This document shows, piece after piece, positions 1 through 16,321 of a stretch of 32,000 nt of DNA. Under the pieces are notes generated by a model. That model did no database searches, was not told where the DNA came from, and saw only the letters and a program-made list of their open reading frames with translations. Source of the DNA: Candidatus Nitrospira inopinata (GTDB lineage Bacteria; Nitrospirota; Nitrospiria; Nitrospirales; Nitrospiraceae); the NCBI RefSeq assembly GCF_001458695.1, contig NZ_LN885086.1, forward strand, positions 2,700,001 to 2,732,000, given 5' to 3'. The position numbers were made by a program, and so were the translations under genes. The number at the start of each line of letters is the position of its first letter. The stretch's first letter is position 1.

Positions 1-1
1 C

Positions 2-1282
2 CCCAATTGGGCCGGCCTGATCGCCGGCTTATTGCTGACCGCGGTCACGACGGGATTATTTCTGGGAATTTTGAAACTCTTTCGTTCCCTCTTTCCACAA
101 GTAATCGAAAAAGTTTCACAATGGGGTCGCACCACCAAATACTGCCTCAAGATCCAACGAGTGGAGCTCTTGTCCGGAACGCAGATCGCGGACGGCGCCT
201 TGGGCGCCGTCCGCATCTTGCGCGTCGTGGCGTACGCTTCGTTGGTTTATCTCTACGTTACATCGATCCTTGGATTCTTTCCCGCCACTCAACAGTTGTC
301 CCTCGAACTACTGGGATATCTTATCGAGCCGATCAAATTGATCGGTCTGACGTTCGTTTCCTCCCTTCCTGATTTTATCGCGATCGTCATCATCGCTCTT
401 GTCACCAAATACATCATCAAGTTGATTCATTTGTTCTTCACCGGAATCGAGCGAGGAGCCATCACCTTCCAGGGGTTTCACCGCGATTGGGCCACGCCCA
501 CGTACAAGATCGTTCGGTTCTTCGCCCTCGTCTTCGCGGCCGTGGCCATTGTTCCGTACATCCCCGGCTCCCATTCGGAAGCGTTCAAGGGCATTTCGGT
601 TTTTCTTGGCGTGTTGGTGTCATTGGGAGCCGCCGGATCGTTCAGCAACATCGTGGCCGGCATCGTGTTGACGTACATGCGGCCGTTCAGCGTCGGAGAT
701 CGCGTCAAGATCGCTGAAACGACGGGCGATATCACCGAAAAAACTCTCCTGGTGACGAGGGTTCGAACCAATAAGAACGTGGACGTGACCATTCCCAACG
801 CATTGGTCTTGAGCTCCCATATCATCAATTTCAGTTCGTCGGCCACGAACCCGCCTCCGCTTATTCTGAACACCAGCGTAACGATCGGGTACGACGTTCC
901 GTGGAGGAAAGTCCACGAATTGCTGCTCGCGGCTGCCAAACGCACGACGCACATTCTGGAGACGCCGGAGCCGTTCGTCTTGCAAACAAGTCTCAATGAC
1001 TTTTACGTCACGTACGAGATCAATGGATACACCAAACACCCCAACAAAATGGCGACCATCTACGCCGAGCTTCATCAACACATTCAAGACCAGTTCAACG
1101 AAGCGGGCGTGGAAATCATGTCGCCTCACTACACCCAAGTGCGCGACGGCAATAAAACGACAATCCCCGATGAATACTTGCCAAAAGGCTACCAGGTTCC
1201 CGGCATCCGCATTTGGCCGCTGCGCTCGTCCCGCGTGCGCTCCGAATCTCCATCCCCAGACGGAGATACCCGCCGACTATGA
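2..1282 (+). CDS. Mechanosensitive ion channel, MscS family (5' end probably lies outside the window)
   Basis: The frame is open from nt 2 to the window edge, and the first listed start (32) is TTG. There are several N-terminal TM helices, then an MscS-type beta-domain signature (FSVGDRVKIAETTGDITEKTLLVTRVRTNKNVDVTIPNALVLSSHIINFS). Stop at 1280-1282. Confidence 0.85.
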   Translation, partial: PNWAGLIAGLLLTAVTTGLFLGILKLFRSLFPQVIEKVSQWGRTTKYCLKIQRVELLSGTQIADGALGAVRILRVVAYASLVYLYVTSILGFFPATQQLSLELLGYLIEPIKLIGLTFVSSLPDFIAIVIIALVTKYIIKLIHLFFTGIERGAITFQGFHRDWATPTYKIVRFFALVFAAVAIVPYIPGSHSEAFKGISVFLGVLVSLGAAGSFSNIVAGIVLTYMRPFSVGDRVKIAETTGDITEKTLLVTRVRTNKNVDVTIPNALVLSSHIINFSSSATNPPPLILNTSVTIGYDVPWRKVHELLLAAAKRTTHILETPEPFVLQTSLNDFYVTYEINGYTKHPNKMATIYAELHQHIQDQFNEAGVEIMSPHYTQVRDGNKTTIPDEYLPKGYQVPGIRIWPLRSSRVRSESPSPDGDTRRL

Positions 1283-1507
1283 ACGCGCTTATCAATGTGC
1301 CGTATTACTCCACACGGGACCAACAGGGTCTTCTCCGGGAGAAACGGCAGGCCGGGGTCTGAAACCGCAGCAATCGCAAGCACGTGGACTTCCTTATCCA
1401 TCTTATCCATGAACATTTTTTCGCCCCGGCCTCGGCTCGATGATCTCTCGTCGGCGATGTCATGATGGATAGGGCTCACGAAAACGCTGTTTTCTTTTCC
1501 TCCTGCC

Positions 1508-1536
1508 TTGACTCACGCGGACGAACCGCGTTAATT
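1508..1536 (+). promoter_or_regulatory. Candidate sigma70-type promoter for the tRNA gene
   Basis: TTGACT (1508-1513), a 17-nt spacer, then TTAATT (1531-1536). The -10 element ends 10 nt before the mature tRNA 5' end at 1547. The spacer contains a small palindrome, CGCGG-acgaa-CCGCG. Confidence 0.45.
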
Positions 1537-1546
1537 TCCAAACCGT

Positions 1547-1622
1547 GGCGGTGTAGCTCAGTTGGCAGAGCAGCGGACTCATAAGCCGCGGGTCGGGGGT
1601 TCGATCCCCTCCACCGCCACCA
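1547..1622 (+). tRNA. tRNA with anticodon CAT (elongator tRNA-Met type; a lysidine-modified tRNA-Ile2 cannot be excluded)
   Basis: Manual cloverleaf fold. Acceptor GGCGGTG pairs with CACCGCC. D arm is GCTC-AGTTGGCA-GAGC. Anticodon loop is CT-CAT-AA. T arm is GGGGG-TTCGATC-CCCTC. Discriminator A with encoded CCA. The 1:72 pair is G:C, so it is not initiator-like. Confidence 0.93.
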
Positions 1623-1702
1623 TGTCGATGCCCGCTCCTTTCCTCGGTTTTTCATCATTCGGCTGACAAGTCACTCTGTCTCTGCTTGCGTTGCATGCGC
1701 GT

Positions 1703-2071
1703 CTAGTGCCCCATCATGCCCTTCATCTCGTTTTTCATGCCTTTCATCTCATCTCCCATGCCCTTGACGTCGTTCTTGACCTCCTCGCCAGCGTCTTTCA
1801 TCACATGCCCCTTGTGTTTCACCTCGTCGGCCTTGTCCTTCACGCCGGCTTTCATCTCTTCTTTCTTGCCGATCATCTCCGCGCGGGCTTTGTCTTTCTG
1901 ACCAAGCACGCCGGAAGTCATTTGGTCTTTCTTGCCCATTACATCGGCCTTCACCGCTTCTTTCTCGCTCCGGACATCGGCTTTGATCTTACCGATCTCG
2001 TCCGCGGCGACGGGCAAACCCATTCCCCCCAGGCACACAAACACCAAGGCGATAAACCCGAGCTTGCTCAT
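1703..2071 (-). CDS. Secreted Lys/Met-rich repeat protein, function unknown
   Basis: Strong SD (AGGAGG) 8 nt upstream of the ATG at 2071. Signal peptide MSKLGFIALVFVCLGGMGLPVAA|DE with a V-A-A cleavage motif. The mature part contains tandem 11-residue units (MGKKDQMTSGV / LGQKDKARAEM / IGKKEEMKAGV) and a Met-rich C-terminus (GMGDEMKGMKNEMKGMMGH). Confidence 0.7.
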   Translation of the reverse strand: MSKLGFIALVFVCLGGMGLPVAADEIGKIKADVRSEKEAVKADVMGKKDQMTSGVLGQKDKARAEMIGKKEEMKAGVKDKADEVKHKGHVMKDAGEEVKNDVKGMGDEMKGMKNEMKGMMGH

Positions 2072-2219
2072 GACAATACCTCCTGTGGATTGAATAACGG
2101 ATAGTACGACGTTGCGTGACCGCTCTCACTTTCACGGAAAGCGATGCAACGGACGAACGCAACCTGAAGCCGGCTGCGATCGCTCGACGAAAGCGGCTCA
2201 AGAGTTATATCATGGATCG

Positions 2220-2405
2220 ATGGGACTCCGCGGGAAAATTCTGATCGGACTTGGAGCGAGTCTCATCGCATGGGGCCTCACCGGTGACTGGCCTGTGGAG
2301 AGTGATCCGACACTTCCGGAAACCCGGTCGTTTTTCTTGTTTCTGGGAGGAGTCGTGGGAAGCGCCGGATTGCTGATCGCGATCCGAGGAGGAGGAGATA
2401 CGTAG
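2220..2405 (+). CDS. Possible small two-TM membrane protein (61 aa)
   Basis: An internal ATG of ORF 2112-2405 gives MGLRGKILIGLGASLIAWGL...FFLFLGGVVGSAGLLIAI, with two hydrophobic helices. There is no convincing SD, and the part of the ORF upstream of this ATG does not look protein-like. Confidence 0.3.
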   Translation: MGLRGKILIGLGASLIAWGLTGDWPVESDPTLPETRSFFLFLGGVVGSAGLLIAIRGGGDT

Positions 2406-2441
2406 AAATTGTCTCGTCCCAGCCGGCGTTCCGGGACAGAG

Positions 2442-3125
2442 TCACCCCCTGGCGGCTGATCGGAAATACAGTTTGAACACCACGCGCCTGCTTCTCTCTC
2501 GGTCGGGAAACCCTAAAGCATTCCGAAGAAGCTCTTGGCTCCCCCTTCCGTTTGCCGACACCTTCCGTTGAAAGCAGGCATAGGCCCACGGTGCACGGTC
2601 TCGAATCGCCACGAGGCTTTTTGACAGCACGGCAAATGAGCGTTCCTGGCTCAACTTGAGGTTTCGGATATCGTCTCCCTGGTCGTCGGTGTGGCCTTCG
2701 ATCACAAACGTCTCCACCTCATCGCCGTGCGGTCCGCAAAGAACGGCCGCGTAGCGAGGCATCGCTTCCGTTAAGAACGCCTCGGCCGCCGGAGAAAGTA
2801 CGCTCTTGCCGAACGCAAAGTTCAGGACAGTGTCCGGCACCGCCACCCTGAGCAGTGACGGATCATCCGCCCGCGCGATCGTAAGACCGTCAGACTCCAT
2901 CTCCCGACGAAGCACGTCAACGGCGGAAACCGTGGGCGCCGACGGCGATGGATTGTCTCCAGTCCCCGTGACACTCTGGGCCGCCAGCAATAACATGCAC
3001 ACCACGGCAAGCGACGTCATGAGATCGGTCGTCCCCGCCGCCGTCGAGAAGCTTCCCTCTTCGGAATCATGCGGCCCGAACGATCGGCGTTCCATGTCCA
3101 TCCTTGGCTTCCCCCGCCACGGCAT
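2442..3125 (-). CDS. MotB/OmpA-like stator anchor protein (single TM plus a peptidoglycan-binding OmpA_C-like domain)
   Basis: The ATG at 3125 directly abuts the TAG (3126-3128) of the upstream gene. The TM is preceded by an Asp (TTD34LMTSLAVVCMLLL, like the D-x-M-T-x-L signature of MotB-type proteins). The C-terminal OmpA-like motifs are FAFGKSVLSP, EGHTDDQGDDIRNLKLSQERSFAV and RSRRVVF. Confidence 0.8.
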   Translation of the reverse strand: MPWRGKPRMDMERRSFGPHDSEEGSFSTAAGTTDLMTSLAVVCMLLLAAQSVTGTGDNPSPSAPTVSAVDVLRREMESDGLTIARADDPSLLRVAVPDTVLNFAFGKSVLSPAAEAFLTEAMPRYAAVLCGPHGDEVETFVIEGHTDDQGDDIRNLKLSQERSFAVLSKSLVAIRDRAPWAYACFQRKVSANGRGSQELLRNALGFPDRERSRRVVFKLYFRSAARG

Positions 3126-4340
3126 CTACGGCCACAGGCGGGACAATCGCCACCCAGCCTTCTGAGCCTCTGCGGTAGCCGGAGGCGATGCCTTTCTTCT
3201 CCGTCGATCGTCGAGCTGCTCGATCAAGCGATTGACATCGTGAGCGGACAACGCATCGGGGGGCCGCAGCGATTCAAGCGACCGGCGCAGCTCATCAACG
3301 GCGACACAGACCGGCTCCGTAATTCGGGCCAGTGCGCCCCGCACTTCTTCGCCGATCGTCGACGCGAGGCGCTCCCGCTGAACTCGCAGATCCTCTTTCC
3401 TCAATAAAGCGAGGCTCTTGGAGATCTCCTCTAGAACCTCGACCGCCGCGTCCATCCGCTGATGGACGGCCTTGATCCCTTGAAGCGCCGTACGGTCCGC
3501 ACCGATGTTTTCATACTCGCCGCCGCCCGTTGCAACCGACGCGCGGCCAAGCGCGCCATGATCTCGAACCTTTTGTGGAAACATCTCGTCGAGAAGCGCG
3601 ATGATCCGGCGATGACGATCGGTCAGTCCGTGCCAACTGGATTTTTCCAACAGGAGAAAGACATTGGCGCACGCGAGCCCGATAATCGAGGTCACAAATT
3701 TTCCGGCCAGACCATTGATGAAGCCGGGAAGTCCCTCGATCCGGGTCCCGTTCGCATGTAATTTACCGAGCCCGATCAGAATGGCCAGAAAAGTGAACAA
3801 CAAGCCGATGCCCGTCAAAAAAGACGGCAAATGGCGGTAGAACTGGTGATTTACATGGCTCGTGCAGGCTGCCTCAAACGAAAAACATTCCGCAGCCGAT
3901 TTATCGGCATACACGGTCGGCTCCAGAAACCAGGACGATTGTTCGACCGAAAGACTTCTGCGGAAGACCAGCCAGTCTCGCGCATAAGTCGGCTCTCCGC
4001 CCATGATGCGATCTAAGGCCATGAGATCGTCGAGATCTCGCTGCTCCACCGGATCGTTCACCCTGTTTGCCCGTTTCCTCGCCTCATCGGAGAACACGAC
4101 CCACTCCGGGGCGGCTTGCCGCCTTCTCCGGACAAGCCGCAGAAGCTGCGGCTCGATCCGCTCCATCGCCGCGCGCAGCCGCCGGATGCCTCGGAGGAAA
4201 CGTCCGCCGTGCCAGAGGAAAAGAACGATAATTGCCATGGATCCGATGCAACTCGCCAGCGGGATCTGAAATCCGTCAAGAAGAGGCACATCGCGCGTCA
4301 CCCAGTCCCATACGTCATCGATGGCCGACAGGAAACTCAT
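3126..4340 (-). CDS. MotA/ExbB/TolQ-like ion-channel (stator) protein with a ~165-aa helical C-terminal tail
   Basis: Start chosen at ATG 4340 (MSFLSAIDD), with GGAGAGGG upstream; the listed ORF starts at TTG 4367. It has one N-terminal TM and a ~135-aa soluble region. A TM pair follows (LPSFLTGIGLLFTFLAILIGL ... GLAGKFVTSIIGLACANVFLLLEK) that is typical of MotA_ExbB-family channels. The tail is charged and heptad-like (AVEVLEEISKSLALLRKEDLRVQRERLAS...). Confidence 0.7.
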   Translation of the reverse strand: MSFLSAIDDVWDWVTRDVPLLDGFQIPLASCIGSMAIIVLFLWHGGRFLRGIRRLRAAMERIEPQLLRLVRRRRQAAPEWVVFSDEARKRANRVNDPVEQRDLDDLMALDRIMGGEPTYARDWLVFRRSLSVEQSSWFLEPTVYADKSAAECFSFEAACTSHVNHQFYRHLPSFLTGIGLLFTFLAILIGLGKLHANGTRIEGLPGFINGLAGKFVTSIIGLACANVFLLLEKSSWHGLTDRHRRIIALLDEMFPQKVRDHGALGRASVATGGGEYENIGADRTALQGIKAVHQRMDAAVEVLEEISKSLALLRKEDLRVQRERLASTIGEEVRGALARITEPVCVAVDELRRSLESLRPPDALSAHDVNRLIEQLDDRRRRKASPPATAEAQKAGWRLSRLWP

Positions 4341-4552
4341 GGTCGCGCGCCCTCTCCACAGATTCAATCGTGAACGACACGTTCAAGATTCACGCCGCGC
4401 CAATTCATCGTTCCGTCATGAACTTGAGAAGCCTTCGCAAGAAGAAAGATCCCCGTGAGCGGGCATTTGTGCCCGAACCAGGAAATTTTTTCCTCACGAC
4501 GGAGAGAGCGGGAAGGGAACATCGACGGTGGGTCGGAATCGGATGGATTCTT

Positions 4553-4822
4553 TTACTGTTTCAGCAAGAGACGGTTTGCCTCCGCAATCGCCTTAAGAAG
4601 AGCGGCCCGCTCCTTCTGATTGCCCTTCGAAATCGGCACACCGTCCGCAAATCGTTTTGCGGCCTGACTCAAGGTTCGCAATGTATCAGCCAAGGAATCG
4701 CCTTCGGCGGAAGGATCATGTTCGGCGTCTCGGAACAGCTTGTGGCGTCTTCTCGGTCCCACATAGAGTTGCGGCGCAATCGGATTGTCCTTTTCCAATT
4801 CAGGTCGCCTGAAGATTCCCAT
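4553..4822 (-). CDS. Hypothetical small protein (89 aa), ORFan
   Basis: ATG at 4822 is preceded by GGGAG with a 6-nt spacer. The composition looks protein-like, with a helical C-terminus (KERAALLKAIAEANRLLLKQ). I recognise no motif. Confidence 0.4.
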   Translation of the reverse strand: MGIFRRPELEKDNPIAPQLYVGPRRRHKLFRDAEHDPSAEGDSLADTLRTLSQAAKRFADGVPISKGNQKERAALLKAIAEANRLLLKQ

Positions 4823-5003
4823 TGTTTTCTCCCACAACGACGCTCGGCGCTGCTCCGTACCACGTGGTATGAGCCGGCCGATTGTCTCCTCCAGGAGGGG
4901 AGAGTTTGAATGGAGACCACACTCGCTCTCCCCGTCCCGACGCTGCTTCGTTCATGCGCCTGATCGCGCGCCCTCCGTTTTTTCCCAAAGGAAACGGGAG
5001 CCG

Positions 5004-5330
5004 CTAGTGACACCTGGCGATCAATCGCCCTCTCCTTCTTCGTGCCAGAGGGAGCCGCACGGGAACCCACTCTTCTTCCCTCACCGGCACGGCCAACATG
5101 ATCATCGAAAGCTTCTGATACATTTTCTCCAATTCTCGGCACCGTTTGACAAAACGGCCGGAGGAGAGTTTCGGGAAATAACCGCGGTATTTCTCATAAA
5201 ACCTTGCCCGTTCTTTCCACCGCTCCGCATAACATCTGAGCAGCCAGGCAGCCGACTCCCAAAGACGAAAGGGCTCCCGTTTTATCGTCTGAAGCCTTGT
5301 GGTCGGCGGAGCCATGATCATGTCTTTCAT
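5004..5330 (-). CDS. Hypothetical small basic protein (108 aa), ORFan
   Basis: ATG at 5330 (MKDMIMAPP) is preceded by a strong SD, AAGGAGGAG. The protein is rich in Trp, Arg, Lys and Tyr and looks helical (FRLWESAAWLLRCYAERWKERARFYEKYRGYF). I recognise no motif. Confidence 0.45.
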   Translation of the reverse strand: MKDMIMAPPTTRLQTIKREPFRLWESAAWLLRCYAERWKERARFYEKYRGYFPKLSSGRFVKRCRELEKMYQKLSMIMLAVPVREEEWVPVRLPLARRRRGRLIARCH

Positions 5331-5507
5331 GTTCTCTCCTCCTTTGTTGATCCCTCGTGCCGTGGGATTAAACATCGTTTCTTGCCCGCACCGCCACTAT
5401 AATTGCGTATCATGAGAACGGCATTAGTCCAACATGAAAACCATCTCATGAAGACAACGTCCATAAATGGAATGAAAAATCCCGTCGTCTTCGATCAACC
5501 GCGACTC

Positions 5508-8123
5508 TTATTCCTCTCGCAATCCTTCCACAATCGACTGTCTCGCCGCCCAGCGCGAAGGGAAGTAGCCTGCCATCAACGTGGCCGCGGCGGCCAATCC
5601 GACCGCTTGCAGGATCCCGCCAAGCGGGACGATCATGTGGATCGTCCAGCCGAACGATTGCTTGTTGATCACCTCGATCAGCAACACGGCCAGCGCTCCT
5701 CCGCCCACCAGCCCCAGTCCTATTCCTATCAGGCCCAGGTACGTCGCTTCCCATAACACCAACTGTCCTATTTGCCTCTCGCCGGCTCCGATGGCCCTGA
5801 GCGTGGCGAACTCCCTCCGACGTTCCAACACCGACGTCACCAGCGTGTTGACGATGCCGAGCATGGCGATCACGACCGCAATCGCTTCAAGCACGTAGGT
5901 CAAGAGAAACGTCCGGTCGAAAATCTCCAGTACTTCCTTGCGAAGTTCGGCGTTGCTGATCAGCAGCGGAGGGAGACGGCCGCCGATCTCGCTCAATCGA
6001 ACCGCCATGCGTTCTCGGACCAGGTCAAGATCGGCTCCTCGGTCCAGATACACGGGAAACACGGTGACGAGGTCGTCCCGCCACAACGATTGATAGAGCC
6101 GGCGATCCATGAGGACTTTTCCTCCGTCGGTCGCATAGTCATAAAACACGGCGACGACGGGAAAACGTCTGGCTCCTTCCGGCGTGACCAGCTCAAGACT
6201 GTCGCCCTCCCGGATCCCAAGCTGATCGGCCAAAATCTCGGAAACCAGCACCCCGTCGATATCCGCCGCGTGAACGAGCCGGTCGGCGGAATCACCGTGA
6301 CGCACCCAATATCGGCTCATCCGGGCATGAATCCGCAAGTCGCGCGACACGATCGCCGCCCGCCTCCCCTGCACGGTCACGCGAACGTCTCGATACGTAT
6401 CGACCTCCGCGACGCCGGGAATCGACGACAAGATCTCCGCCCACGATCCCGGCAAACTCCTTCCCGTACTCCCGGCTTCCGTCCCACGCAGCCAGAGCGA
6501 CGGCGCGACGATCACGTCCGCCATCACGGTCTCCGACACCCAGACTTCCACCGTGTTTCGGAAGCTTTTAATCATGACCAGCACGCCGATCATGATGGAC
6601 AACCCGACCATCAAGGCGGAGATGCTCACCCCGTTGCGGCCGGGATTGCGCGACGCATGATCGATCGCGATCGCCCGTATGATTCCCCCCATCGTTGATT
6701 GAAGCCCTGGCTGCCGGATTCCACGGCGCCAACCGGTCACGCAAACGGGGGCCATGCACGACAGACCGGCCAATAAGCAGAGCGTTGAGGCGTACCCCGG
6801 CACGGGAACTCCATCGATGGGGTCGGCCGTGCTCAACACTCCCGCAATGACGAGCAGGATGAATCCCCCCATGCCCAACGAGCCGACTCGCAGTCGTTGT
6901 CCCGCCTCGTAATCACCGGGCGCCAAGGCCCGCACGGGAGCCGTCCGCGCGGCGTTCATACTCGGCCCGACCGAACCGATCATGGAGACGGCGCAACCGA
7001 CGAGAATTCCTTCCGAGGCCAACCGCCAAAGCCAATCGGACTCCAGGGCAAGACTGTTCCCGACTCCCACGGGAACGTACAAATCCGAGATCGTTCGACC
7101 GAGCAACTTCACCAGTTCTCTGGCCAGAAGAAACCCCGCCGCGCTTCCGATCAAACCGCCGGCCAATCCCAACACGGCGGCTTCGGATAAAAACAAACCG
7201 GCCACCCTCGCTTGCGTCATCCCGATCGCGCGATAGATTCCTATTTCCCGCCGCCGTTGCGCGACCGCAAAAGCCATCGTGTTATAGATCAGAAACATGC
7301 CGACCAACAGACCGACCCAGCTCAGCACTGTGACGTTCAGGCGAAAGGCCCGCATCATGTGATCGACCTGCGCGGTGCGACTCGACGGACGCTCGACCGT
7401 CACGGTCGGCGGAACGATCGCGCGCACCGCTTGCGCGACTTCTTCGACGTCACGATCCTTCTCCGTGACGAGATCGATCCGATCCAACCGCCCGACCATG
7501 CCGAACGTCACCTGTGCCGCCGCAATATCCATGACCGCAAGACGACTCCACAGAGCCGTCCGATCCGTCGCGTCTTCGAGCAGCCCGACGATCTTGCAGG
7601 CCGTCAAACCAGGCCCCACTTGAAGATCGATCGTCTCGCCCACGGAGACTCCCCATTCGGAGGCCAATCCCTTCCCCAACAAAATGGTGTTCGGATCAAG
7701 CATGGCTTCCAACCGGCGATCCGCCGATTGCCGAAGATGAAACCCTCGCGATTCGACTTCGGCAAGAAGATCCAAGCCAAGCACCTGGACGGCCTCTTGG
7801 CGATCGCCGCGCGTGATGACCGCCGTTTGCAGAATGACCGGAGCGCTTGAGAGAACGCCCGGCACGTTTCGGATCGTCGTGATGATTCGTTCGTCCAGCC
7901 CCAGTTCGCCTCCGGAGATTTCGAGAGTCGTCGGCCCCGCCACGGTCAAGACCGCCTGTTCGAACGAGCGCAGAACATCGACGTTGGCCGTCCGCACCGC
8001 CACCGACGCGGAGACGCCGAGCGCCACGCCGATGACGGTCAACCCCGTGCGAAGGGGTCGCTGGAAGACTTGCGCGGCGAGAATCAGCCGCAGCACCTTG
8101 AGAAAGGACACGGCGGCCATCAT
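5508..8123 (-). CDS. ABC transporter permease, duplicated FtsX/MacB-type (YbbP-like, 871 aa)
   Basis: Two repeats of the same module: a TM helix, a large periplasmic domain, then three TMs of FtsX type. Each half begins with an FtsX-like N-terminus (LRTGLTVIGVALGVS.. and NPGRNGVSISALMVGLS..). Confidence 0.88.
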   Translation of the reverse strand: MMAAVSFLKVLRLILAAQVFQRPLRTGLTVIGVALGVSASVAVRTANVDVLRSFEQAVLTVAGPTTLEISGGELGLDERIITTIRNVPGVLSSAPVILQTAVITRGDRQEAVQVLGLDLLAEVESRGFHLRQSADRRLEAMLDPNTILLGKGLASEWGVSVGETIDLQVGPGLTACKIVGLLEDATDRTALWSRLAVMDIAAAQVTFGMVGRLDRIDLVTEKDRDVEEVAQAVRAIVPPTVTVERPSSRTAQVDHMMRAFRLNVTVLSWVGLLVGMFLIYNTMAFAVAQRRREIGIYRAIGMTQARVAGLFLSEAAVLGLAGGLIGSAAGFLLARELVKLLGRTISDLYVPVGVGNSLALESDWLWRLASEGILVGCAVSMIGSVGPSMNAARTAPVRALAPGDYEAGQRLRVGSLGMGGFILLVIAGVLSTADPIDGVPVPGYASTLCLLAGLSCMAPVCVTGWRRGIRQPGLQSTMGGIIRAIAIDHASRNPGRNGVSISALMVGLSIMIGVLVMIKSFRNTVEVWVSETVMADVIVAPSLWLRGTEAGSTGRSLPGSWAEILSSIPGVAEVDTYRDVRVTVQGRRAAIVSRDLRIHARMSRYWVRHGDSADRLVHAADIDGVLVSEILADQLGIREGDSLELVTPEGARRFPVVAVFYDYATDGGKVLMDRRLYQSLWRDDLVTVFPVYLDRGADLDLVRERMAVRLSEIGGRLPPLLISNAELRKEVLEIFDRTFLLTYVLEAIAVVIAMLGIVNTLVTSVLERRREFATLRAIGAGERQIGQLVLWEATYLGLIGIGLGLVGGGALAVLLIEVINKQSFGWTIHMIVPLGGILQAVGLAAAATLMAGYFPSRWAARQSIVEGLREE

Positions 8124-8515: not shown

Positions 8516-9445
8516 CTATAACTCCTTGACGGCTCCTCGGAAGTCTTCGACCGAGCGGTATCCTTTCTTGGCCATCAACGCGGCCAACTCGGTTTCGAGC
8601 CTGCCGAACACATCAAGCCCTTCTTCCACCAACGCCGTTCCGATCTGCACGGCGGACGCTCCGCACAGGATGTGCTCAAAGGCGTCTCCGCCGTCCACGA
8701 CGCCGCCCGTGCCGATGATGGGAACGGCGCCCTGAAACAATTTGTAAAACGCGCGGACGTTGGCCAGGGCCACGGGCTTGATGATTTTTCCGCCCACTCC
8801 CCCGAATCCTCCCTTCGGTTTGATGACCACGGTTTCCCGCTCGGGGTCGACGACCAACCCGTTGCCCACCGAGTTGATCACGTTGAGAAAATCGACGCCG
8901 CTTCTCGCGATGACCTGTCCCATCGCCTCATGGTGCGCCGGATCGAAGTACGGCGGAAGCTTCACGCCCATGGGAACCGTAATCAGCGCGCGCGTCCGTT
9001 TCATCACCCGCTCCGAAGCCTCCAGGTCATAACCGATCTGCGGTTTTCCGGGAATATTCGGACAAGACAGATTCACTTCGATTAAATCCGGGCCCGCGGC
9101 GTTGATCGCGTCGGCAATGATCGTAAAATCCTCTTCGCACAGCCCCGCGACGCTCGCGATGACCGGCTTTCCAAATCGTTTGAGATCCGGGATCAATTCC
9201 GCGTAGGCGCGGTAGCCGAGATTGGGGAGCCCCATGGAATTGATGGATCCGCCCGGGAACCCATAATAACGGGGTTCCGGATTGCCTCGTCGGGGCTCGA
9301 CCGTCATCGACTTGGTCACGATGGCGCCTGCGCGCGACCGTCCCAGCGCCGTCAGCTCTTCTCGCGTTACGCACAACGCGCCGGAAGCGTTCATGAAGCA
9401 GGCGGGAAACTTGACTCCCGCGATCGTCGTGGACAAATCCGTCAT
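8516..9445 (-). CDS. pyrD: Dihydroorotate dehydrogenase, class 1
   Basis: Start at ATG 9445 (MTDLSTTIAGVKF..). Motifs present: NASGAL, NLSCPN (catalytic Cys) and GTGGVVDGGDAFEHILCGASAVQIGTAL. The start overlaps the upstream ABC ATPase stop as ATGA (9442-9445). Confidence 0.9.
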   Translation of the reverse strand: MTDLSTTIAGVKFPACFMNASGALCVTREELTALGRSRAGAIVTKSMTVEPRRGNPEPRYYGFPGGSINSMGLPNLGYRAYAELIPDLKRFGKPVIASVAGLCEEDFTIIADAINAAGPDLIEVNLSCPNIPGKPQIGYDLEASERVMKRTRALITVPMGVKLPPYFDPAHHEAMGQVIARSGVDFLNVINSVGNGLVVDPERETVVIKPKGGFGGVGGKIIKPVALANVRAFYKLFQGAVPIIGTGGVVDGGDAFEHILCGASAVQIGTALVEEGLDVFGRLETELAALMAKKGYRSVEDFRGAVKEL

Positions 9446-10140
9446 GACGATACCGACTCCTCCACGCGTTCGACTCGCGCCACGAGCCGGCCGTCCTGCA
9501 TCGTCCAAACGTAGTCGGCGGTCTGAGCCGCGTGCCGGCTGTGCGTCACCAGCAAGACCGTTTGCTTTCCCGCCGTCGCCAGTGTTTTCAACAACGTCAT
9601 GATCGCGGCGCCCTGATGGGAATCAAGGTTCCCGGTCGGCTCGTCGGCCAGAAGAAGCCGCGGGCGATGGGCCAACGCCCTGGCGATCGCCACCCGCTGC
9701 TGCTCTCCGCCGGATAACTCTCCCGGCCGGTGGCTTCGCCTTGGATCCATTCCCACCATCGCCAACATTTCATCCACACGCTTCATCACGTCGCGCCGTC
9801 CCTCCCCGCGCAACAGCAACGGCAGCGCGATATTCTCCTCCGCCGTCAACGCGGGGACCAAATGAAACGCTTGAAAAACGATTCCGATCGTCTCGCGGCG
9901 CAAGGCCGTCCATTCGGCGTTGCTGAACCCCGCGGTGGATCGCCCGCCGAGAACGATCTCGCCCGACGTCGGCTGGTCCAACCCGGCGACAAGATTCAGC
10001 AAGGTGCTTTTGCCGCATCCGCTCGGCCCCACGAACGCGCAAAAGTCGCCTTCTTTTATCTCAAGATCCACCTCGCGCAACGCGGTGACGAGGGTTCCGC
10101 CTCGGACGTAGGTCTTCGACAGTCGTTTAAGAACAACCAT
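9442..10140 (-). CDS. ABC transporter ATP-binding protein (LolD/YbbA/MacB-ATPase-like)
   Basis: Start chosen at ATG 10140 (MVVLKRLSKTY). Walker A is GPSGCGKST, the signature is [15 protein letters not shown], and Walker B is [12 protein letters not shown]. Confidence 0.9.
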   Translation of the reverse strand: MVVLKRLSKTYVRGGTLVTALREVDLEIKEGDFCAFVGPSGCGKSTLLNLVAGLDQPTSGEIVLGGRSTAGFSNAEWTALRRETIGIVFQAFHLVPALTAEENIALPLLLRGEGRRDVMKRVDEMLAMVGMDPRRSHRPGELSGGEQQRVAIARALAHRPRLLLADEPTGNLDSHQGAAIMTLLKTLATAGKQTVLLVTHSRHAAQTADYVWTMQDGRLVARVERVEESVSS

Positions 10141-10259
10141 GCACGCGCCCGCATCGCCGACGAGTGAAGCGCCGTCGCCCCGGTTCGGCACGAACGGGCA
10201 ATCGTATAACATACCGGTTCGGAACGGCACAACCTTGACAGAACCCATGCTTTCGGCTT

Positions 10260-11108
10260 ATGGACCAGTGTCATCGATTTACCGTCGGAATGATGCCATC
10301 GATGGCCGGTTCGTTCATCGATTCCGTTCGAGGGATAACCAGACAGGCCGTGCGATTTCTGTTGCCGGTCGACTGCGCGGCCTGCGGTCTTCCTCTGGCC
10401 GATAGTCCGATTCCTTGCTTCTGCGTCGGTTGTTGGAATTCCATTGTCCCCATCGCCTCTTCCCGCTGTGCCCGCTGCGGCTACCCGTTTCTCTCGCCGG
10501 CCGCGACGTCCCATGCGCCCAACCATACGTGCCAATCCTGCAGGAAACGTCCCCCCTCTTATACGAAGGCCTGGACGTTGTATCCCTACCGCTCGCCTCT
10601 GCGGGAAGCTCTGCACCTGTTCAAATACCAGGGAAAGGTCTCGCTGGCAGCTCCTTTGGCCGGCCTCATCACCGCCCACCTTCCTCGGTTCGAGTCCCTC
10701 GACGTTATCGTTCCGGTCCCCCTCCACATTGAGCGACTGCGCGAACGAGAGTTCAATCAATCGTTGCTCCTGGCGGATCGAATCGGCCGCCGCCTTGGTC
10801 TTCCGGTATCCTGCACCGACTTGATCCGCTGCCGGCCTGCTCCTCCACAAATCTCGCTGAGGCGGAAAGAACGGCTCAAAAACCTCCGCGGCGCGTTCAC
10901 CGTCCCACACCCTCGAGCCGTGGCCGGAAAACGCATCTTGTTGATCGACGACGTCTTCACAACCGGCGCGACGATCAACGAATGCGCCAAGACGCTCCGC
11001 AAGGCCGGATCAAGCGACGTATTCGCCCTCACGTTGGGGCGAACGATGGACGCGAGCCATGTCCCCGATCGATCGTTTCAGCGGCGGGATGGTCGGCCGT
11101 CCGGCTAA
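10260..11108 (+). CDS. comF: ComF/GntX-family phosphoribosyltransferase-domain protein
   Basis: N-terminal Cys-rich zinc-finger-like region (CAACG...CVGCW...CARCG...CQSC) and a C-terminal PRTase motif (ILLIDDVFTTGATINE). The start among the early Met codons is uncertain. Confidence 0.85.
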   Translation: MDQCHRFTVGMMPSMAGSFIDSVRGITRQAVRFLLPVDCAACGLPLADSPIPCFCVGCWNSIVPIASSRCARCGYPFLSPAATSHAPNHTCQSCRKRPPSYTKAWTLYPYRSPLREALHLFKYQGKVSLAAPLAGLITAHLPRFESLDVIVPVPLHIERLREREFNQSLLLADRIGRRLGLPVSCTDLIRCRPAPPQISLRRKERLKNLRGAFTVPHPRAVAGKRILLIDDVFTTGATINECAKTLRKAGSSDVFALTLGRTMDASHVPDRSFQRRDGRPSG

Positions 11109-11127
11109 CGAAGAGGAGAACGCACCC

Positions 11128-11484
11128 ATGCCGATTTACGAATACATGTGTCGAAGTTGTAAAAAACGGAGTTCGCTTTTGGTGTTAAATTATCGCAACC
11201 CGCTCTCGGCTTCCTGCCGCCATTGCGGCAGTCTTGAGTTGGACCGTGTGATGTCCCGGTTCGCCGCGCCAAAATCCGAGGAGGCTCGGATGGAGTCCCT
11301 GGCTGAGTCCGCCGATCTCGATGGACTGGACGAACAGGATCCGCAAAGCATGGCTCGTTTCATGCGAAAGATGAAACGTGAAATGGGCGAAGACTTCGGC
11401 GACGATCTGGACATGGACGCCATGATGGAACAAGAAAGCCCTATGGATCAAACCGGAGAATCGGGCGATAGTGACAGCGAATGA
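11128..11484 (+). CDS. FmdB-family CxxC zinc-ribbon putative regulatory protein with an acidic tail
   Basis: MPIYEYMCRSCKKR...CRHCGS is the characteristic MPxYEYxCxxC ... CxxCG pattern. A GAGGAG SD lies 9 nt upstream of the ATG at 11128. Confidence 0.8.
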   Translation: MPIYEYMCRSCKKRSSLLVLNYRNPLSASCRHCGSLELDRVMSRFAAPKSEEARMESLAESADLDGLDEQDPQSMARFMRKMKREMGEDFGDDLDMDAMMEQESPMDQTGESGDSDSE

Positions 11485-11506
11485 CAGCCATTGTCATACA
11501 TTTTCC

Positions 11507-11535
11507 TTGACAATCTTCGTGTGCCGCCGGACAAT
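11507..11535 (+). promoter_or_regulatory. Candidate sigma70-type promoter upstream of the HTH gene and mraZ
   Basis: TTGACA (11507-11512), a 17-nt spacer, then GACAAT (11530-11535). It is flanked upstream by 10-bp-phased TGACAGC / TGACAGC / TGTCA repeats (11472-11496). Confidence 0.45.
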
Positions 11536-11597
11536 GCGCTCCATTGCCATGATGCGCGTGGGAGAGCTTCCTTGCAAACACGGACCTTGGTGGCGGG

Positions 11598-11795
11598 ATG
11601 GGCGCGCTTCCGAAAAGCGAATTGATGACGGTCGAAGAAACGTGTCGTTATCTGAAAATCACTCGCCGCACGCTCTATCGGTATTTGAGAAGCCATCAGA
11701 TTCCCGCGTTCAAGTTGGGAAAAGAATGGCGGTTCGTCCGGTTGGATCTTGAACAATGGATTCGCAACCGAACCAGAACCGTGACCAATCGCTGA
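11598..11795 (+). CDS. Excisionase-family (MerR-like, HTH_17-type) DNA-binding protein, 65 aa
   Basis: LMTVEETCRYLKITRRTLYRYLRSHQIPAFKLGKEWRF is typical of the small helix-turn-helix excisionase-type domain. The start could instead be the internal ATG at 11625. Confidence 0.75.
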   Translation: MGALPKSELMTVEETCRYLKITRRTLYRYLRSHQIPAFKLGKEWRFVRLDLEQWIRNRTRTVTNR

Positions 11796-11814
11796 GCTGA
11801 CGAGGCCGGGAGCC

Positions 11815-12255
11815 ATGTTCGCCGGAGAATATCTGTGCAAACTGGATGAAAAAGGGCGCTTTATCGCCCCCTCCCCCCTTCGCGAGCAAATCGAAGCGGA
11901 AGGGCAGGCGGTCGTCTTCTTGAAAGGTCAAGAGCAATCGTTGCTGTTGTACTCGGCGAGGGAATGGAACCAAGTGCTCGAGCGAACGAAGGCCTCGCTG
12001 GATGACGATCAAAGCCGTCTCTTCATGCACTTTGTCGTGTCGGAAGCCGGCACCTCGGATATCGATAAAGCAGGCCGCATTCTGATCCCCGCCCGCTTGC
12101 GAAAAATGCTGCCGCTTGATGACGACCAGGAAGTCATCCTGGTCGGTTTGTACCATCGAATCGAGATTTGGAGCCCCGGCGAATGGCGCCGCTATCTGAC
12201 TCGCACGGAAGATCGGTATGAGCAAAACATGGCCAAGATCATGAATCTCTTGTAG
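11815..12255 (+). CDS. mraZ: Transcriptional regulator MraZ
   Basis: Both halves carry the MraZ signature: MFAGEYLCKLDEKGRFIAPSPLR and DIDKAGRILIPARLRKM. Length 146 aa. Confidence 0.92.
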   Translation: MFAGEYLCKLDEKGRFIAPSPLREQIEAEGQAVVFLKGQEQSLLLYSAREWNQVLERTKASLDDDQSRLFMHFVVSEAGTSDIDKAGRILIPARLRKMLPLDDDQEVILVGLYHRIEIWSPGEWRRYLTRTEDRYEQNMAKIMNLL

Positions 12256-12479
12256 CTCGATTCATGCCCTCACGTCGCCGACGATTCATCCCGCGCTCCT
12301 TTCCACTTTCCGCTCCGGTGTTCCCGATTCGCTCTCAGAAAAAAGAGACGCCCTCCGTCTTGGTCCCTCCGATCACACACGCTCGTTCCGCCGGATCACT
12401 CCCACCGCACACGGTTCAAAAACTTGGACGTCAACCTGAATGTTCCTTTACCGTCACGGTCACGTCGGAACATCTGTCG

Positions 12480-12860
12480 ATGATTCTGCCCGTTCCCCCC
12501 AGCATCAACCATCAATATGCCACCGTGAACGGCCGCCGTTTGCTGTCCTCCGCCGGTCGGTCGTACAAAGCTCTCGTCAGCCGCCACATCTGGATCGCCC
12601 TGGCCCAATCACCGGCCCGCGCTTCCTTGATGAAACGGCTCCAATCGGCACCGCTGGCTCTCTCGATCCATTTTTATTTCACGACGCCGCTGCGTCGTGA
12701 CGTGGACGGCGGTTTGAAGATCACGCAAGATGCCGTCTGCGAAGGACTGGGCATCAACGACAACCGCATTGTCGAAACCCATCTGTACAAACGGATAGAC
12801 AAACTCAACCCTCGGATCGAAGTCTGTCTGACCACTGCCGACTCCCCGCCCACGATTTGA
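12480..12860 (+). CDS. rusA: RusA-like Holliday-junction resolvase (endodeoxyribonuclease RusA family)
   Basis: It aligns by eye with E. coli RusA. ILPVPPSINHQY matches ITLPWPPSNNRYY, and LRRDVDGGLKITQDAV matches RRRDLDNLQKAAFDAL. GINDNRIVETHLYK matches WLDDAQVVDYRVVK, so the acidic catalytic residues are kept. The ORF is open from ATG 12264, with TTG 12360 also possible. The N-terminal 72 codons look non-coding, so the start is uncertain. Confidence 0.75.
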   Translation: MILPVPPSINHQYATVNGRRLLSSAGRSYKALVSRHIWIALAQSPARASLMKRLQSAPLALSIHFYFTTPLRRDVDGGLKITQDAVCEGLGINDNRIVETHLYKRIDKLNPRIEVCLTTADSPPTI

Positions 12861-13031
12861 CAGCCGCGCTCCCGCGTCCGCAAGTGAACTTATTAAGATA
12901 GAAGCCGCGTAACGACGCATTCGAAAGCGACGCGCAGCAAGCCCCTGCTCTTCAATACGAATGTTAGGCGGACAAGGTAATGAGGTATGGCCCCTTATCC
13001 AGCATCGCGGCAGAGGGAGCGGCATGAAGAA

Positions 13032-13051
13032 CCCCGCCCTTACGGGCGGGG
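13032..13051. repeat. Perfect 8-bp stem / 4-nt loop hairpin at the 3' end of the IS200-like tnpA relic
   Basis: CCCCGCCC-TTAC-GGGCGGGG. On the minus strand, the stop codon of the last tnpA reading frame lies in the loop. IS200/IS605 ends and REP elements typically carry hairpins like this. Confidence 0.7.
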
Positions 13052-13492
13052 GCTCCTTAACAATGCAAGCTGCGCGTGACCCGTCTCCTGCTCGCCTTGG
13101 CGCCGCATAGACTGGCGAATCATAGCCTCGTTGCTCCCCCCGTCGAGGCGAAAAATCCTCGCGCCCAGCCCTCGCCCCCATCCCACGACACTCGGCGCAA
13201 CCCGTGCGGGCGTTGCCTTTCAACTGCCGACTGGTCAGGCTTTTCAAGGGTTCCCCCACTTGTGCAACCGCGCATTTCGGCGGAATCACCATGGGCAGAT
13301 GGATATGGTCCCGCTCCACTCCAAATTTCCTCCAGCAACCAATTCAGGGTGCAATTCCCCCACGCCGCAGAGGACCTTCTTCAAGGATTCAGCTATGCCA
13401 AGCACGAGAATGTTCCGCCGGTACCGCGGTACCCCCACCAAATGGTCCTGGGTCTTGTACGCCACATAGACCTGTCGATAGAGCTTCATCAC
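13040..13492 (-). pseudogene. tnpA: IS200/IS605-family Y1 (HUH) transposase tnpA relic (or RAYT-like), multiply frameshifted
   Basis: Homology is spread over at least four frame segments on the minus strand. These are MKLYRQVYVAYKTQDHLVGVPRYRRNILVLGIAESLKKVL...ELVAGGNLE, then RDHIHLPMVIPPKCAVAQV..LKSLTSRQL (HUH motif). The last two are RRVSWDGGEGWARGFFASTGGAT and NEAMIRQSMRRQGEQE. Confidence 0.8.
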
Positions 13493-13611
13493 CGGCCATC
13501 AGAGCACCAGGCAAGTACCAGACGGCTCCTCGCTCACCCCCACCCTCCCAGGTGGAGACCTCCCGCGCAAGTAACTGAGCCTCCCAAGCTTCTCATGATC
13601 CCGGCCGCCTG

Positions 13612-14025
13612 GTGCAAGCCGCACGCAACAAACAATTCGTTAACCAGTTGGCGAGAGAATTAAAAGTCTTAGCCAAGAAGGGTCGCCTAAGGCATGATGT
13701 GGACGAGAGTCCTGATGTGAAATCAGCCTTGCAGGAACTACTTACAGCGTTTGAGGATCCCCCCGTTGACGATGCCAAGTTTGAGGCGCTCAAGAAAATC
13801 TTCTTGGCGGCATGTGCTGGAGATACCTCCACCAACGTGCTTCAGCAGCTTATCCTCGCTGTGGCACGAAGACTGAGCGCCGGCGAACTGGTGGTGCCGG
13901 CAACGGCGCACAAGGTCGGTCGAAACGCTCCGAGCACCAGTACTCGCAGCGTCATTGATGCCAAAACTTGGCTCTCGGAAATCGCAACGGCTTTGGGTCT
14001 TGGGTCAACTGACTTTGTAGAATAG
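13612..14025 (+). CDS. Hypothetical protein or gene fragment in a lower-GC segment
   Basis: GTG-initiated 137-aa ORF with a protein-like helical sequence (SPDVKSALQELLTAFEDPPVDDAKFEALKKIFLAA...). There is no clear SD and no motif I recognise. It may be the 3' fragment of a gene truncated by the adjacent IS relic. Confidence 0.35.
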   Translation: MQAARNKQFVNQLARELKVLAKKGRLRHDVDESPDVKSALQELLTAFEDPPVDDAKFEALKKIFLAACAGDTSTNVLQQLILAVARRLSAGELVVPATAHKVGRNAPSTSTRSVIDAKTWLSEIATALGLGSTDFVE

Positions 14026-14259
14026 TACGCAGAGCGGCTCGCCGCAGCTTTCTGCTCGCGGCTCGTGGCTGGCAGGAATCACCGTCGGCGAATCGTCTTG
14101 CTCGCCATCGATGCGTTTGAGGACTCGCATACGAGGCTCTATATAAATCAGCAGTTTTAAAATGTGACGTTTTTGACCTCTACCCGGTAAATCAGTATTG
14201 GACAAGATGCGATCATTCGCAAGAAAGCAAAGGATTCTGGTCACTTGCTCCGGTTCGAT

Positions 14260-15495: not shown

Positions 15496-16214
15496 TATGC
15501 CTCGACCGGCAGAGCGGACGCACCGGACGGTGTTTTGCGATCCGTCAAGATGCGGCCATCTTTCATGACGACTTCCCGTTCGGCATAGGCGGCAATGTCC
15601 GTCTCGTGTGTCACCAAAACGATGGTGATTCTCTGCTCCTTATTCAACCCATCGAGAATCGTCATGATTTCCAGGCTCGATTGGGTATCCAGATTGCCCG
15701 TGGGCTCGTCGGCCAGCAAGAGCGAGGGAGAAGCGACCAACGCCCGCGCGATCGCGACCCGCTGCTGTTGTCCCCCCGACAGTTGCGACGGGTAATGGTT
15801 CTCCCGGCCCTGAAGTCCGACGCGCGCGAGCGCCTCCGCCGCGAGAGTCCGCTGTTGCCTAAGCGGCAGGCCACGATAAAATAACGGAAGTTGCACGTTT
15901 TCCAACGCGCTGGTGCGGGGAATCAGATTGAAGTTTTGAAACACGAAACCGATCCGCCGGTTTCGAATCTCGGCCAATTGATCGGCGCGCAATCCTCCCA
16001 CGTCGACCCCTTGCAATCGATAACAGCCCTTCGTCGGCCGATCCAGACAACCGAGTATATTCATCAGCGTCGATTTTCCAGAGCCGGACGCCCCCATGAT
16101 TGCGACAAACTCCCCTTCCCTGATGAGCAAATCAACCCCTCGGAGAGCCTGGACCTCCACGTCGCCGAGACGATAGATCTTCCAGAGATCCTCACAAGAA
16201 ATGAGCGCGGCCAT
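15495..16214 (-). CDS. MacB-type ABC efflux ATP-binding protein
   Basis: Walker A is GASGSGKST, the signature is [15 protein letters not shown], Walker B is [12 protein letters not shown], and the H-loop is THE. Confidence 0.93.
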
Positions 16215-16321
16215 CGGCGCCGATCCTCCTCATCCATATGACGATTGCGGAAGTCATGGCGCGGTCCCAGACGCGGGCCATCTTTGGATTCATCCCGCGA
16301 CCATCATAATTGAACGCCGAA

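Follow-up and report, generated by a model that had tools for sequence, protein, structure and literature searches.

Two adjacent minus-strand genes of Candidatus Nitrospira inopinata, here called A and B, very probably encode a complex of the ZorAB class, with a short tail and with no effector genes alongside. They lie in the window, that is, the whole stretch of 32,000 nucleotides that was analysed (contig NZ_LN885086.1, positions 2,700,001 to 2,732,000 of the forward strand; positions below are counted from the first letter of this stretch). Gene A encodes a ZorA-like channel or rotor subunit and gene B a ZorB-like anchor subunit, and the pair is conserved among Nitrospirales. A first-pass annotation of the DNA had described two minus-strand products, a channel subunit with three transmembrane (TM) segments and an Asp-bearing anchor with a single TM segment and an OmpA-like domain, and had likened them to ZorAB. 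The open reading frames (ORFs), hydropathy and Pfam agree with this description, and the PADLOC, PDB sequence and Foldseek matches, which are to ZorA and ZorB, uphold the comparison.

Assignment to the ZorAB class was obtained by several approaches. In PADLOC, A matched 18 ZorA models, the best being ZorA1 (PDLC00598, 2.3e-15, residues 103-256), and B matched almost the entire ZorB1 model (PDLC00609, 4.3e-31). The ZorA2 and ZorB2 models also matched, and ZorA and ZorB were the only defence models matched by the pair. A profile made from 14 family members of A and searched against all PDB sequences gave significant matches solely to ZorA chains (8vvn_C, 1.3e-12; the E. coli ZorA entries 8qyk, 8qyy, 8qyd and 8qyh, 3e-11 to 6e-8; 8vvi_F, 9e-4), and no MotA, ExbB or TolQ chain appeared at E <= 1. 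The sole PDB sequence match of B was the type II ZorB 8vvi_A. Furthermore, the AlphaFold 2 (AF2) model of A, predicted as a monomer from an alignment of 71 sequences, has a mean predicted local distance difference test score (pLDDT) of 70.7, with core blocks at 85-93, and its top Foldseek matches are ZorA (8qyh, 8qyd, 8qyk and 8qyy; E about 1e-7; target-normalised template modelling score 0.62-0.69). TolQ, ExbB and MotA were matched by this model only at E 0.06-1 (>= 0.057); in E-value the ZorA matches are superior by a factor of about 10^5-10^6. The model of B (pLDDT 80.6) consists of one TM helix and an OmpA-like domain, and it aligns along almost all of its length with the ZorB chains 8vvi, 8qyd_F and 8vvn. 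Finally, the family PF28082, which lies outside the Pfam copy used for our profile scan and is named 'ZorA-like_t1' by another tool, is precomputed on a database protein identical to A (P0001) and on all but one of the 120 homologues listed.

The start of A is read as ATG 4340 on the minus strand and not as TTG 4367, with which the ORF would span 3126-4367 in place of 3126-4340, because a GGAGAGG lies 10 nt upstream of the ATG and because the identical database protein P0001 has 404 residues. Hydropathy gives three TM segments in A (residues 24-42, 174-192 and 213-231) and one in B, in line with the peptides quoted in the first-pass annotation, and the TM1 helix extends into the cytoplasm to residue 76 in the AF2 model. 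The membrane-proximal cytoplasmic domain is modelled as two helices and a beta-hairpin (helices 102-115 and 117-128, strands 130-133 and 142-145; pLDDT 78-90), and it holds a conserved acidic motif of which D102, D104, D105 and D110 are all invariant. A cytoplasmic domain built from a pair of helices together with a beta-sheet is listed as unique to Zorya-type A subunits in a survey of stators (PMC12505986), and the AF2 model of A has such a domain. TM2, the periplasmic loop and TM3 are the best-conserved part of A (mean column identity 0.86-0.91 over 71 A sequences), and T183 and S218 are invariant in this set. In E. coli ZorAB the engaged ion-binding site consists of Asp26, Thr147 and Ser184 (PMC11946911). 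T183 of A pairs with Thr147 in the HMMER alignment. S218 pairs with Ser184 only in the ungapped register counted back from a shared LEK motif, whereas the gapped HMMER alignment sets L222 opposite Ser184; the two serines are probably equivalent.

The ORF of B reaches ATG 3125 (2442-3125, 227 aa), and the stop codon of A (TAG, 3128-3126) directly abuts this ATG, the junction reading '...CCG TAG ATG CCG...'. The exact abutment that the first-pass annotation reported is therefore present in the DNA. However, ATG 3125 is probably non-functional and the true start is probably ATG 3101 (Met9), because most of the listed homologues have 207-219 residues and because this ATG is closely preceded by a purine-rich GGGGGAAG...AAGG. 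The closest B homologue among the matches listed has 219 residues, and the majority of 207-219 aa begin at the equivalent of Met9. With this start a spacer of 24 nt takes the place of the abutment, and the arrangement is still operon-like. The Asp remarked on earlier as MotB-type residue 34, in 'TTDLMTSL' of the 227-aa product, is residue 26 in Met9 numbering, the same number as Asp26 of E. coli ZorB. Its codon is at 3024-3026, in the motif DLMTSL. D26, L27, M28, S30 and L31 are invariant in 50 B sequences, and 'tDLMTSL' of B is aligned with 'sDMMTSL' of 8vvi_A. The C-terminal OmpA-like domain (Pfam OmpA, 1.2e-8, above the gathering score; AF2 pLDDT mostly 85-98) bears the motifs GHTDDxGD...NLKLSQERSFAV, and the peptidoglycan-binding motif TDD...NLxLSQxR is conserved in the 50 sequences. 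Two Cys of this domain, C122 and C176, are invariant. Foldseek pairs B with many OmpA-like peptidoglycan-binding domains as well as with ZorB chains. In sum, A is a ZorA homologue with a ZorA-type membrane core and B a ZorB homologue with a TM Asp and a peptidoglycan-binding domain, and the ion-path residues are present as Asp26 of B and Thr183 in TM2 of A, with Ser218 in TM3 as the probable third.

The feature that sets A apart is its tail. The TM3 helix stops at residue 253, which coincides with the site where the E. coli ZorA tail would begin; D251 and F254 are invariant and P255 is conserved in at least 90% of the sequences. From P255 to residue 289 there is a stretch of 27-35 residues rich in Ser, Ala, Gln and Pro. 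Here the model is of low confidence (pLDDT below 50 for residues 260-282, blocks 261-280 averaging 34), and mean column identity is 0.47 for residues 259-289. Beyond this linker, AF2 predicts three amphipathic helices (280-316, 322-357 and 366-384; pLDDT 55-75) with a hydrophobic period of 3.6-3.75. The module contains positions conserved in at least 90% of the sequences, such as V300, L303, E332 and V333, and aligns weakly to the first part of ZorA tails. About 170 mostly helical residues follow TM3, as had been noted from the sequence, but they do not form the one continuous charged helix of that description, being a variable linker followed by three helices.

The length after TM3 is 147-185 residues in 71 of 71 family members, and none of these sequences has the long coiled-coil tail of ZorA (about 500 aa, about 70 nm). 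Among the 150 best superfamily representatives this length is bimodal, with peaks at 150-199 aa, mostly of the Nitrospirales type, and at 400-449 aa, the canonical ZorA length; lengths below about 150 aa are likely to be mostly gene fragments. The E. coli ZorA tail is a pentameric coiled coil (residues 223-729) about 70 nm long; defence was lost with each of the tail truncations, and motor assembly was lost when the whole tail was deleted (PMC11946911). The roughly 105 helical residues of the A tail would span at most about 15 nm when fully extended. Long ZorA tails are reported for all Zorya subtypes, in a survey that took in only canonical zorABCD, zorABE and zorFABG operons (PMC11946911).

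The pair is widespread in one lineage. A has more than 300 close homologues, mostly of 380-424 aa and with 41-89% identity, and every named one among those listed is Nitrospira; B homologues show the same pattern, the named ones listed being Nitrospira. When GTDB was scanned with one genome for each species, 87 species had an A homologue. Eighty loci were kept, and all are assigned to Nitrospira, Nitrospiraceae or Nitrospirota except two titled 'uncultured bacterium' and one 'uncultured Nitrosospira sp.', which we take to be a mislabel. The matches of an exhaustive profile search over 1.84 billion representatives fell into two tiers by score. The first has about 30 full-length short-form clusters above 200 bits, and the named members in ten clusters checked are Nitrospira, Nitrospirota or Nitrospirales. 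The second, after a drop in score, comprises hundreds of proteins of 550-830 aa, and five of five scanned with PADLOC were ZorA1 (1e-32 to 1e-44).

In 79 of the 80 loci kept, B lies 3' of A and has the same orientation. The flanks seen in the window itself are shared by none but its 7-8 closest relatives, metagenome-assembled genomes (MAGs) of hot-spring type. In some 50-57 other species A and B form a unit of two genes that is bordered by housekeeping genes of the opposite strand. One flank has KsgA/RsmA, a small unknown protein, PdxA, a Na/Ca exchanger and LarC/LarB, and the other a small lipoprotein, a response-regulator diguanylate cyclase (GGDEF), a YbgF-like tetratricopeptide repeat (TPR) protein, DUF2726 and AnmK. 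Over 51 species, the pairwise divergence of A and B correlates with that of KsgA, PdxA and the GGDEF regulator (Pearson 0.73-0.88; 0.81-0.88 against KsgA and PdxA) as strongly as these three genes correlate with one another (0.74-0.84). Against six close relatives, the ratio of nonsynonymous to synonymous substitution rates (dN/dS) is 0.17-0.27 for A and 0.16-0.32 for B, with an overlapping alternative frame as control at about 1.1. Because of the synteny, the divergence in step with flanking genes and the dN/dS values together, these data indicate that the pair is a functional, vertically inherited core gene pair of Nitrospirales and not a mobile defence island.

In most Nitrospira, at about 54 loci (L008-L080), the small lipoprotein is conserved (about 136 aa, of no known family) and its gene lies about 300-640 bp upstream of A, transcribed divergently, followed by the genes of the response-regulator diguanylate cyclase and then of the YbgF-like TPR protein. 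This arrangement is absent from the clade of the window. A regulatory link, for example via cyclic di-GMP, is conceivable.

Partners of the pair were searched for in the window and beyond. No ZorC, ZorD, ZorE, ZorF or ZorG was found in the 32-kb window with PADLOC and Pfam on the flanking small ORFs and the other ORFs scanned, nor among the conserved neighbours in the 80 related loci, in line with the earlier remark that a ZorC/D/E-like partner was missing. De novo clustering of ORFs within 7 kb on either side of the pair in the 80 loci gave no conserved third gene, only opposite-strand housekeeping neighbours. The fli/flg/che, tol/pal, tonB and gliding genes were likewise absent from the window ORFs scanned, as the first reading had it, and flagellar, TonB and Tol-Pal partners were absent from the conserved neighbours of the 80 loci, except for the lone YbgF-like TPR gene, which lies about 3 kb from the pair on the opposite strand in most Nitrospira.

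Two small ORFs upstream of A, orf94 and orf123, had been set down as ORFans. They have no Pfam or PADLOC match, and they are real genes specific to the clade of the window (dN/dS values in Table 1; an overlapping alternative frame, used as control for orf94, gives about 1.1). Since they were found in this clade only, even by profile search, they are not general partners of A and B, and we rejected them as hidden universal partners. They may be co-transcribed with the pair. In addition, orf97 (2112-2405, plus strand; dN/dS 0.28-0.95) is doubtful as a gene. Promoter/terminator and Rfam scans of positions 1-6000 found only the tRNA.

Table 1. Features of the gene pair and of the small genes upstream, in window positions (residues of B in Met9 numbering).
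Feature	Position	Strand	Basis
Gene A, ZorA-like channel/rotor subunit, 404 aa	3126..4340	-	ORF, PADLOC, PDB sequence search, Foldseek, PF28082, dN/dS
GGAGAGG, Shine-Dalgarno-like, 10 nt 5' of the ATG of A	4351..4357	-	read from sequence
A, TM1 (aa 24-50)	4191..4271	-	hydropathy peak 24-42; AF2 helix 28-76, pLDDT ~90
A, membrane-proximal cytoplasmic domain (aa 101-170)	3831..4040	-	AF2, conserved columns
A, TM2 (aa 171-197), periplasmic loop and TM3 (aa 204-235), ion-path helices	3636..3830	-	conservation, alignment
A, variable linker (aa 255-279), after conserved D251-x-x-F254-P255	3504..3578	-	pLDDT, composition, column identity
A, C-terminal helical 'tail' module (aa 280-384)	3189..3503	-	AF2, hydrophobic period
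Gene B, ZorB-like anchor subunit, 219 aa from probable start ATG 3101	2442..3101	-	PADLOC, PDB, Foldseek, dN/dS, homologue lengths
B, TM helix (aa 21-44)	2970..3041	-	AF2 helix 21-44, invariant columns
B, periplasmic OmpA-like peptidoglycan-binding domain (aa 60-213)	2463..2924	-	Pfam OmpA, AF2, Foldseek, invariant columns
orf94, small gene upstream of A	4553..4837	-	dN/dS 0.15-0.26; in 7/80 loci
orf123, small gene further upstream	5004..5375	-	dN/dS 0.07-0.22; in 8/80 loci

On balance we lean towards reading the pair as a functional, proton-driven and peptidoglycan-anchored ZorAB-class complex that acts as a constitutive, lineage-core sensor or transducer coupled to the envelope, with an output in trans or at the level of the membrane. 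A constitutive envelope sensor or transducer is favoured because the pair is core, syntenic and under purifying selection. In such a complex, two B subunits would sit within a ring of five A subunits in the inner membrane, and the OmpA-like domain of B would fix the dimer to peptidoglycan. Protons passing via Asp26 of B and Thr183 and Ser218 of A would drive rotation of A around B, and engagement of peptidoglycan would gate the proton flow. The torque or conformational signal would then reach a short, flexibly linked helical module in place of a 70-nm shaft, and the target of the short tail may be the product of a gene located elsewhere or the membrane itself. We infer the 5:2 stoichiometry, proton coupling and rotation by homology with E. 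coli ZorAB; sensing of the envelope is our own suggestion. That ion-motive force drives a signalling or effector module, as the first-pass annotation proposed, is likewise a hypothesis.

Several points weigh against this reading. The 5:2 assembly is taken from homology and the predictions are of monomers, including that of the A tail, which is of moderate confidence (pLDDT 55-75). The envelope-sensor role is drawn solely from context and inheritance pattern. E. coli ZorAB without its effectors gives no defence (PMC11946911), and with the tail results from the same work this makes any output of a short-tailed pair standing alone conjectural. Partners encoded elsewhere in the genome are possible. 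The NCBIfam scores are far below the curated cut-offs (ZorA_3, 34.6 bits against 250; ZorB2, 31.9 against 400; ZorB1, 16.7 against 400), and the figure of 79 in 80 describes the loci kept and not the share of all Nitrospirales genomes.

The pair could also be bona fide Zorya defence with effectors that are elsewhere or unrecognised, possibly the products of orf94 and orf123, which the short tail would recruit on phage-induced envelope damage. Its nearest relatives are indeed type I ZorA and ZorB, orf94 and orf123 are same-strand, uncharacterised genes just upstream in the clade of the window, and unannotated same-strand genes follow a short pair in two distant lineages (L082 and L084). However, no neighbour matches a known Zor effector model, orf94 and orf123 occur in just 7-8 of the 80 loci, and the genes at L082 are in no other locus. 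The inheritance pattern and the housekeeping synteny are atypical of defence systems, and a system with a truncated tail runs counter to the long tails reported in all subtypes and to the loss of defence on truncation (PMC11946911). We regard this explanation as rather unlikely.

A minimal abortive-infection or stress module, in which the ZorAB-like channel by itself opens on envelope perturbation and dissipates the proton-motive force, is improbable. It would suit a complete ion path and a peptidoglycan anchor that are conserved with no partner conserved in cis, and it recalls an early proposal, recounted in the PADLOC paper, that ZorAB is a proton channel facilitating abortive infection (PMC8565338). 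Yet a pure leak has no need of a conserved C-terminal helical module (V300, L303, E332 and V333), and E. coli ZorAB is insufficient for defence and acts directly, not abortively (PMC11946911).

That the pair is the decaying remnant of an earlier Zorya system, its tail truncated, its effectors lost and without present function, is strongly disfavoured: the tail is short and effectors are missing, but both genes are under purifying selection (dN/dS 0.16-0.32), the functional residues are invariant across sequences only 41-89% identical, and length is constant and the pair retained across the whole order. That the pair is an ordinary member of MotAB, ExbBD or TolQR with partners elsewhere, for which the remote TolQ/ExbB fold similarity (Foldseek probability 0.85-0.99, but E 0.06-0.4) and the nearby YbgF-like gene could be cited, is effectively refuted, and this filing was rejected, since Pfam MotA_ExbB and MotB_plug have no match in A or B even at E <= 1, no PDB chain of these families matches at that threshold, the B domain is of the OmpA type and not of the TolR/ExbD fold, and no TolA, TolB, Pal, TonB or Fli occurs in the window ORFs scanned or among conserved neighbours; placement with ExbBD/TolQR and Tol/Ton synteny, either of which the first-pass annotation had said would make the pair ordinary, were thus both looked for and not found.

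Around the pair, the window contains an MscS channel, a tRNA-Met, a secreted Lys/Met/His-rich repeat protein, four small unknown ORFs, a fused MacB/FtsX permease, a LuxR-type regulator, a dihydroorotate dehydrogenase (DHODH) and an ABC ATPase. More distant are a second MacAB-HlyD set, AccB/AccC, EF-P, AroQ, CoaBC, Gmk, YicC, HflX, TsaD, a Clp ATPase and NAD kinase. Among all these neighbours PADLOC gave no relevant match. A tRNA-linked island, suggested by the adjacent tRNA-Met, was considered and rejected, the GC content being unremarkable and the inheritance of the pair vertical. The secreted repeat protein (1703-2071, minus strand, 122 aa) has Lys/Met/His/Asp-rich repeats ('KADV..GKK', 'MKGM') and no Pfam or PADLOC match. 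It is under purifying selection (dN/dS 0.11-0.23) but occurs in just 7 of the 80 loci, and judging by its composition it may bind metal, for example copper, in the periplasm. Two separate MacB-type ABC export systems lie within 12 kb, both on the minus strand. The first (5508-8123) is a fused double FtsX/MacB_PCD permease (871 aa), whose ABC ATPase gene (9442-10248) lies past the LuxR-type and DHODH genes, and the second (14260-17575) is a classical operon of MacB (411 aa), ABC ATPase and HlyD/MacA. Between housekeeping genes, 11100-14200 may be a prophage or mobile-element remnant: it has small unannotated ORFs, including a RusA-like Holliday-junction resolvase (12264-12860, Pfam RusA 7.5e-7), and GC skew is locally reversed at 11001-12000. 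An 808-aa Clp-family AAA+ ATPase (28399-30825, minus strand) matched PADLOC PDC-M37B (1e-44) and DolB (5e-35); these are generic cross-matches of the AAA domain and do not point to a defence system.

The pair is not a new kind of machine, its homology being already captured by the PF28082 name and the PADLOC models. Nevertheless, full-text literature searches found no description of ZorA-like pairs without effectors or of this Nitrospira pair, and the structural literature claims universal long tails from surveys without such pairs (PMC11946911). Zorya is currently seen as a sensor motor whose 70-nm tail passes a signal to DNA-targeting effectors. If a short, effector-less ZorAB is fixed and under purifying selection across an order, the motor module may have a function independent of the known effectors, such as surveillance or maintenance of the envelope, or may couple to unrecognised partners. 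We put forward only tentatively that the Nitrospirales pair is the first ZorAB-class motor outside phage defence, a core envelope sensor or transducer with a minimal tail, which would be either ancestral to Zorya, with tail elongation and effector capture coming later, or a domesticated descendant. The pair bears in this way on the evolutionary origin of Zorya, and it offers a natural 'minimal ZorAB' for probing the input that the motor senses and the role of the tail base. For the biology of Nitrospira, which are environmentally important nitrifiers, it represents an uncharacterised, conserved, energy-coupled complex associated with the envelope.

Among known 5:2 motors, TolQR, ExbBD and MotAB presumably share with the pair a pentameric A ring around a B dimer, a TM Asp and ion flow, and the OmpA anchor of MotB is analogous to that of B. 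The pair differs from them in having no Pfam MotA_ExbB membership, a much weaker fold match, another cytoplasmic domain and no TolA, TonB or FliG context, and A has an extra C-terminal helical module. Other short pairs from metagenomes (for example L084, L081 and L086) resemble it in an A of about 400-420 aa with PF28082 and an overlapping downstream gene, which is an OmpA-type B at L084 and is cut off and unannotated at L081 and L086. Their relationship to it is remote (P0280 reaches about 129 bits against the Nitrospira profile). At L084 (9615-11165, plus strand) the ZorA-like (417 aa) and ZorB-like (225 aa) genes are followed by one for a 516-aa soluble, coiled-coil-like protein, rich in Ala, Glu, Leu and Gln and without TM segments, whereas nothing comparable was seen near the Nitrospira pairs. 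This protein matches solely the tail region of a ZorA3 model, weakly (1.7e-4), and the arrangement may be a 'tail in trans'. At L082 (Nitrospirales MAG GCA_021604005.1; 10646-15168, plus strand) two genes follow the pair on the same strand. One encodes a multi-TM protein of 1245 aa, which ends in a C-terminal region with a P-loop-like motif (GFPGQGKTT), and the other a protein of 250 aa; with no Pfam or PADLOC match and present in none of the other loci, they were not retained as partners.

Type II (ZorABE) and type III (ZorFABG) Zorya share the ZorAB core, and the ZorA2 and ZorB2 models match. Here, however, ZorE, ZorF (DUF3348) and ZorG (DUF2894) were not found by Pfam or PADLOC in the flanking small ORFs, and the A tail is shorter than reported for any Zorya subtype (PMC11946911). 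The closest known systems are of type I (E. coli ZorAB, 8qyd; Shewanella ZorAB, 8vvn). These carry zorC and zorD, of which neither stands beside the Nitrospira pair, and the Nitrospira pair is inherited vertically among housekeeping genes and not in a defence island. The tail, which the first reading had rightly called much shorter, has 147-185 residues after TM3 against about 530 in E. coli ZorA, with a low-confidence variable linker at its start. The Ca2+ site in the cytoplasmic domain of E. coli ZorA (E86/E89) lies outside the HMMER alignments with A, which start only at residue 110; the cytoplasmic domain of A has the invariant acidic cluster D102/D104/D105/D110. In common with type I, the core of A has three TM segments and a cytoplasmic domain with a beta-hairpin, its TM2 Thr is conserved and its TM3 Ser probably so. 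B likewise has a single TM segment, Asp26 within D-[LM]-M-T-S-L, no match to a MotB-type plug, and an OmpA-like peptidoglycan-binding domain with conserved Cys residues. The gene order, A then B, is the same, and it is with type I that the best sequence and fold matches were obtained.

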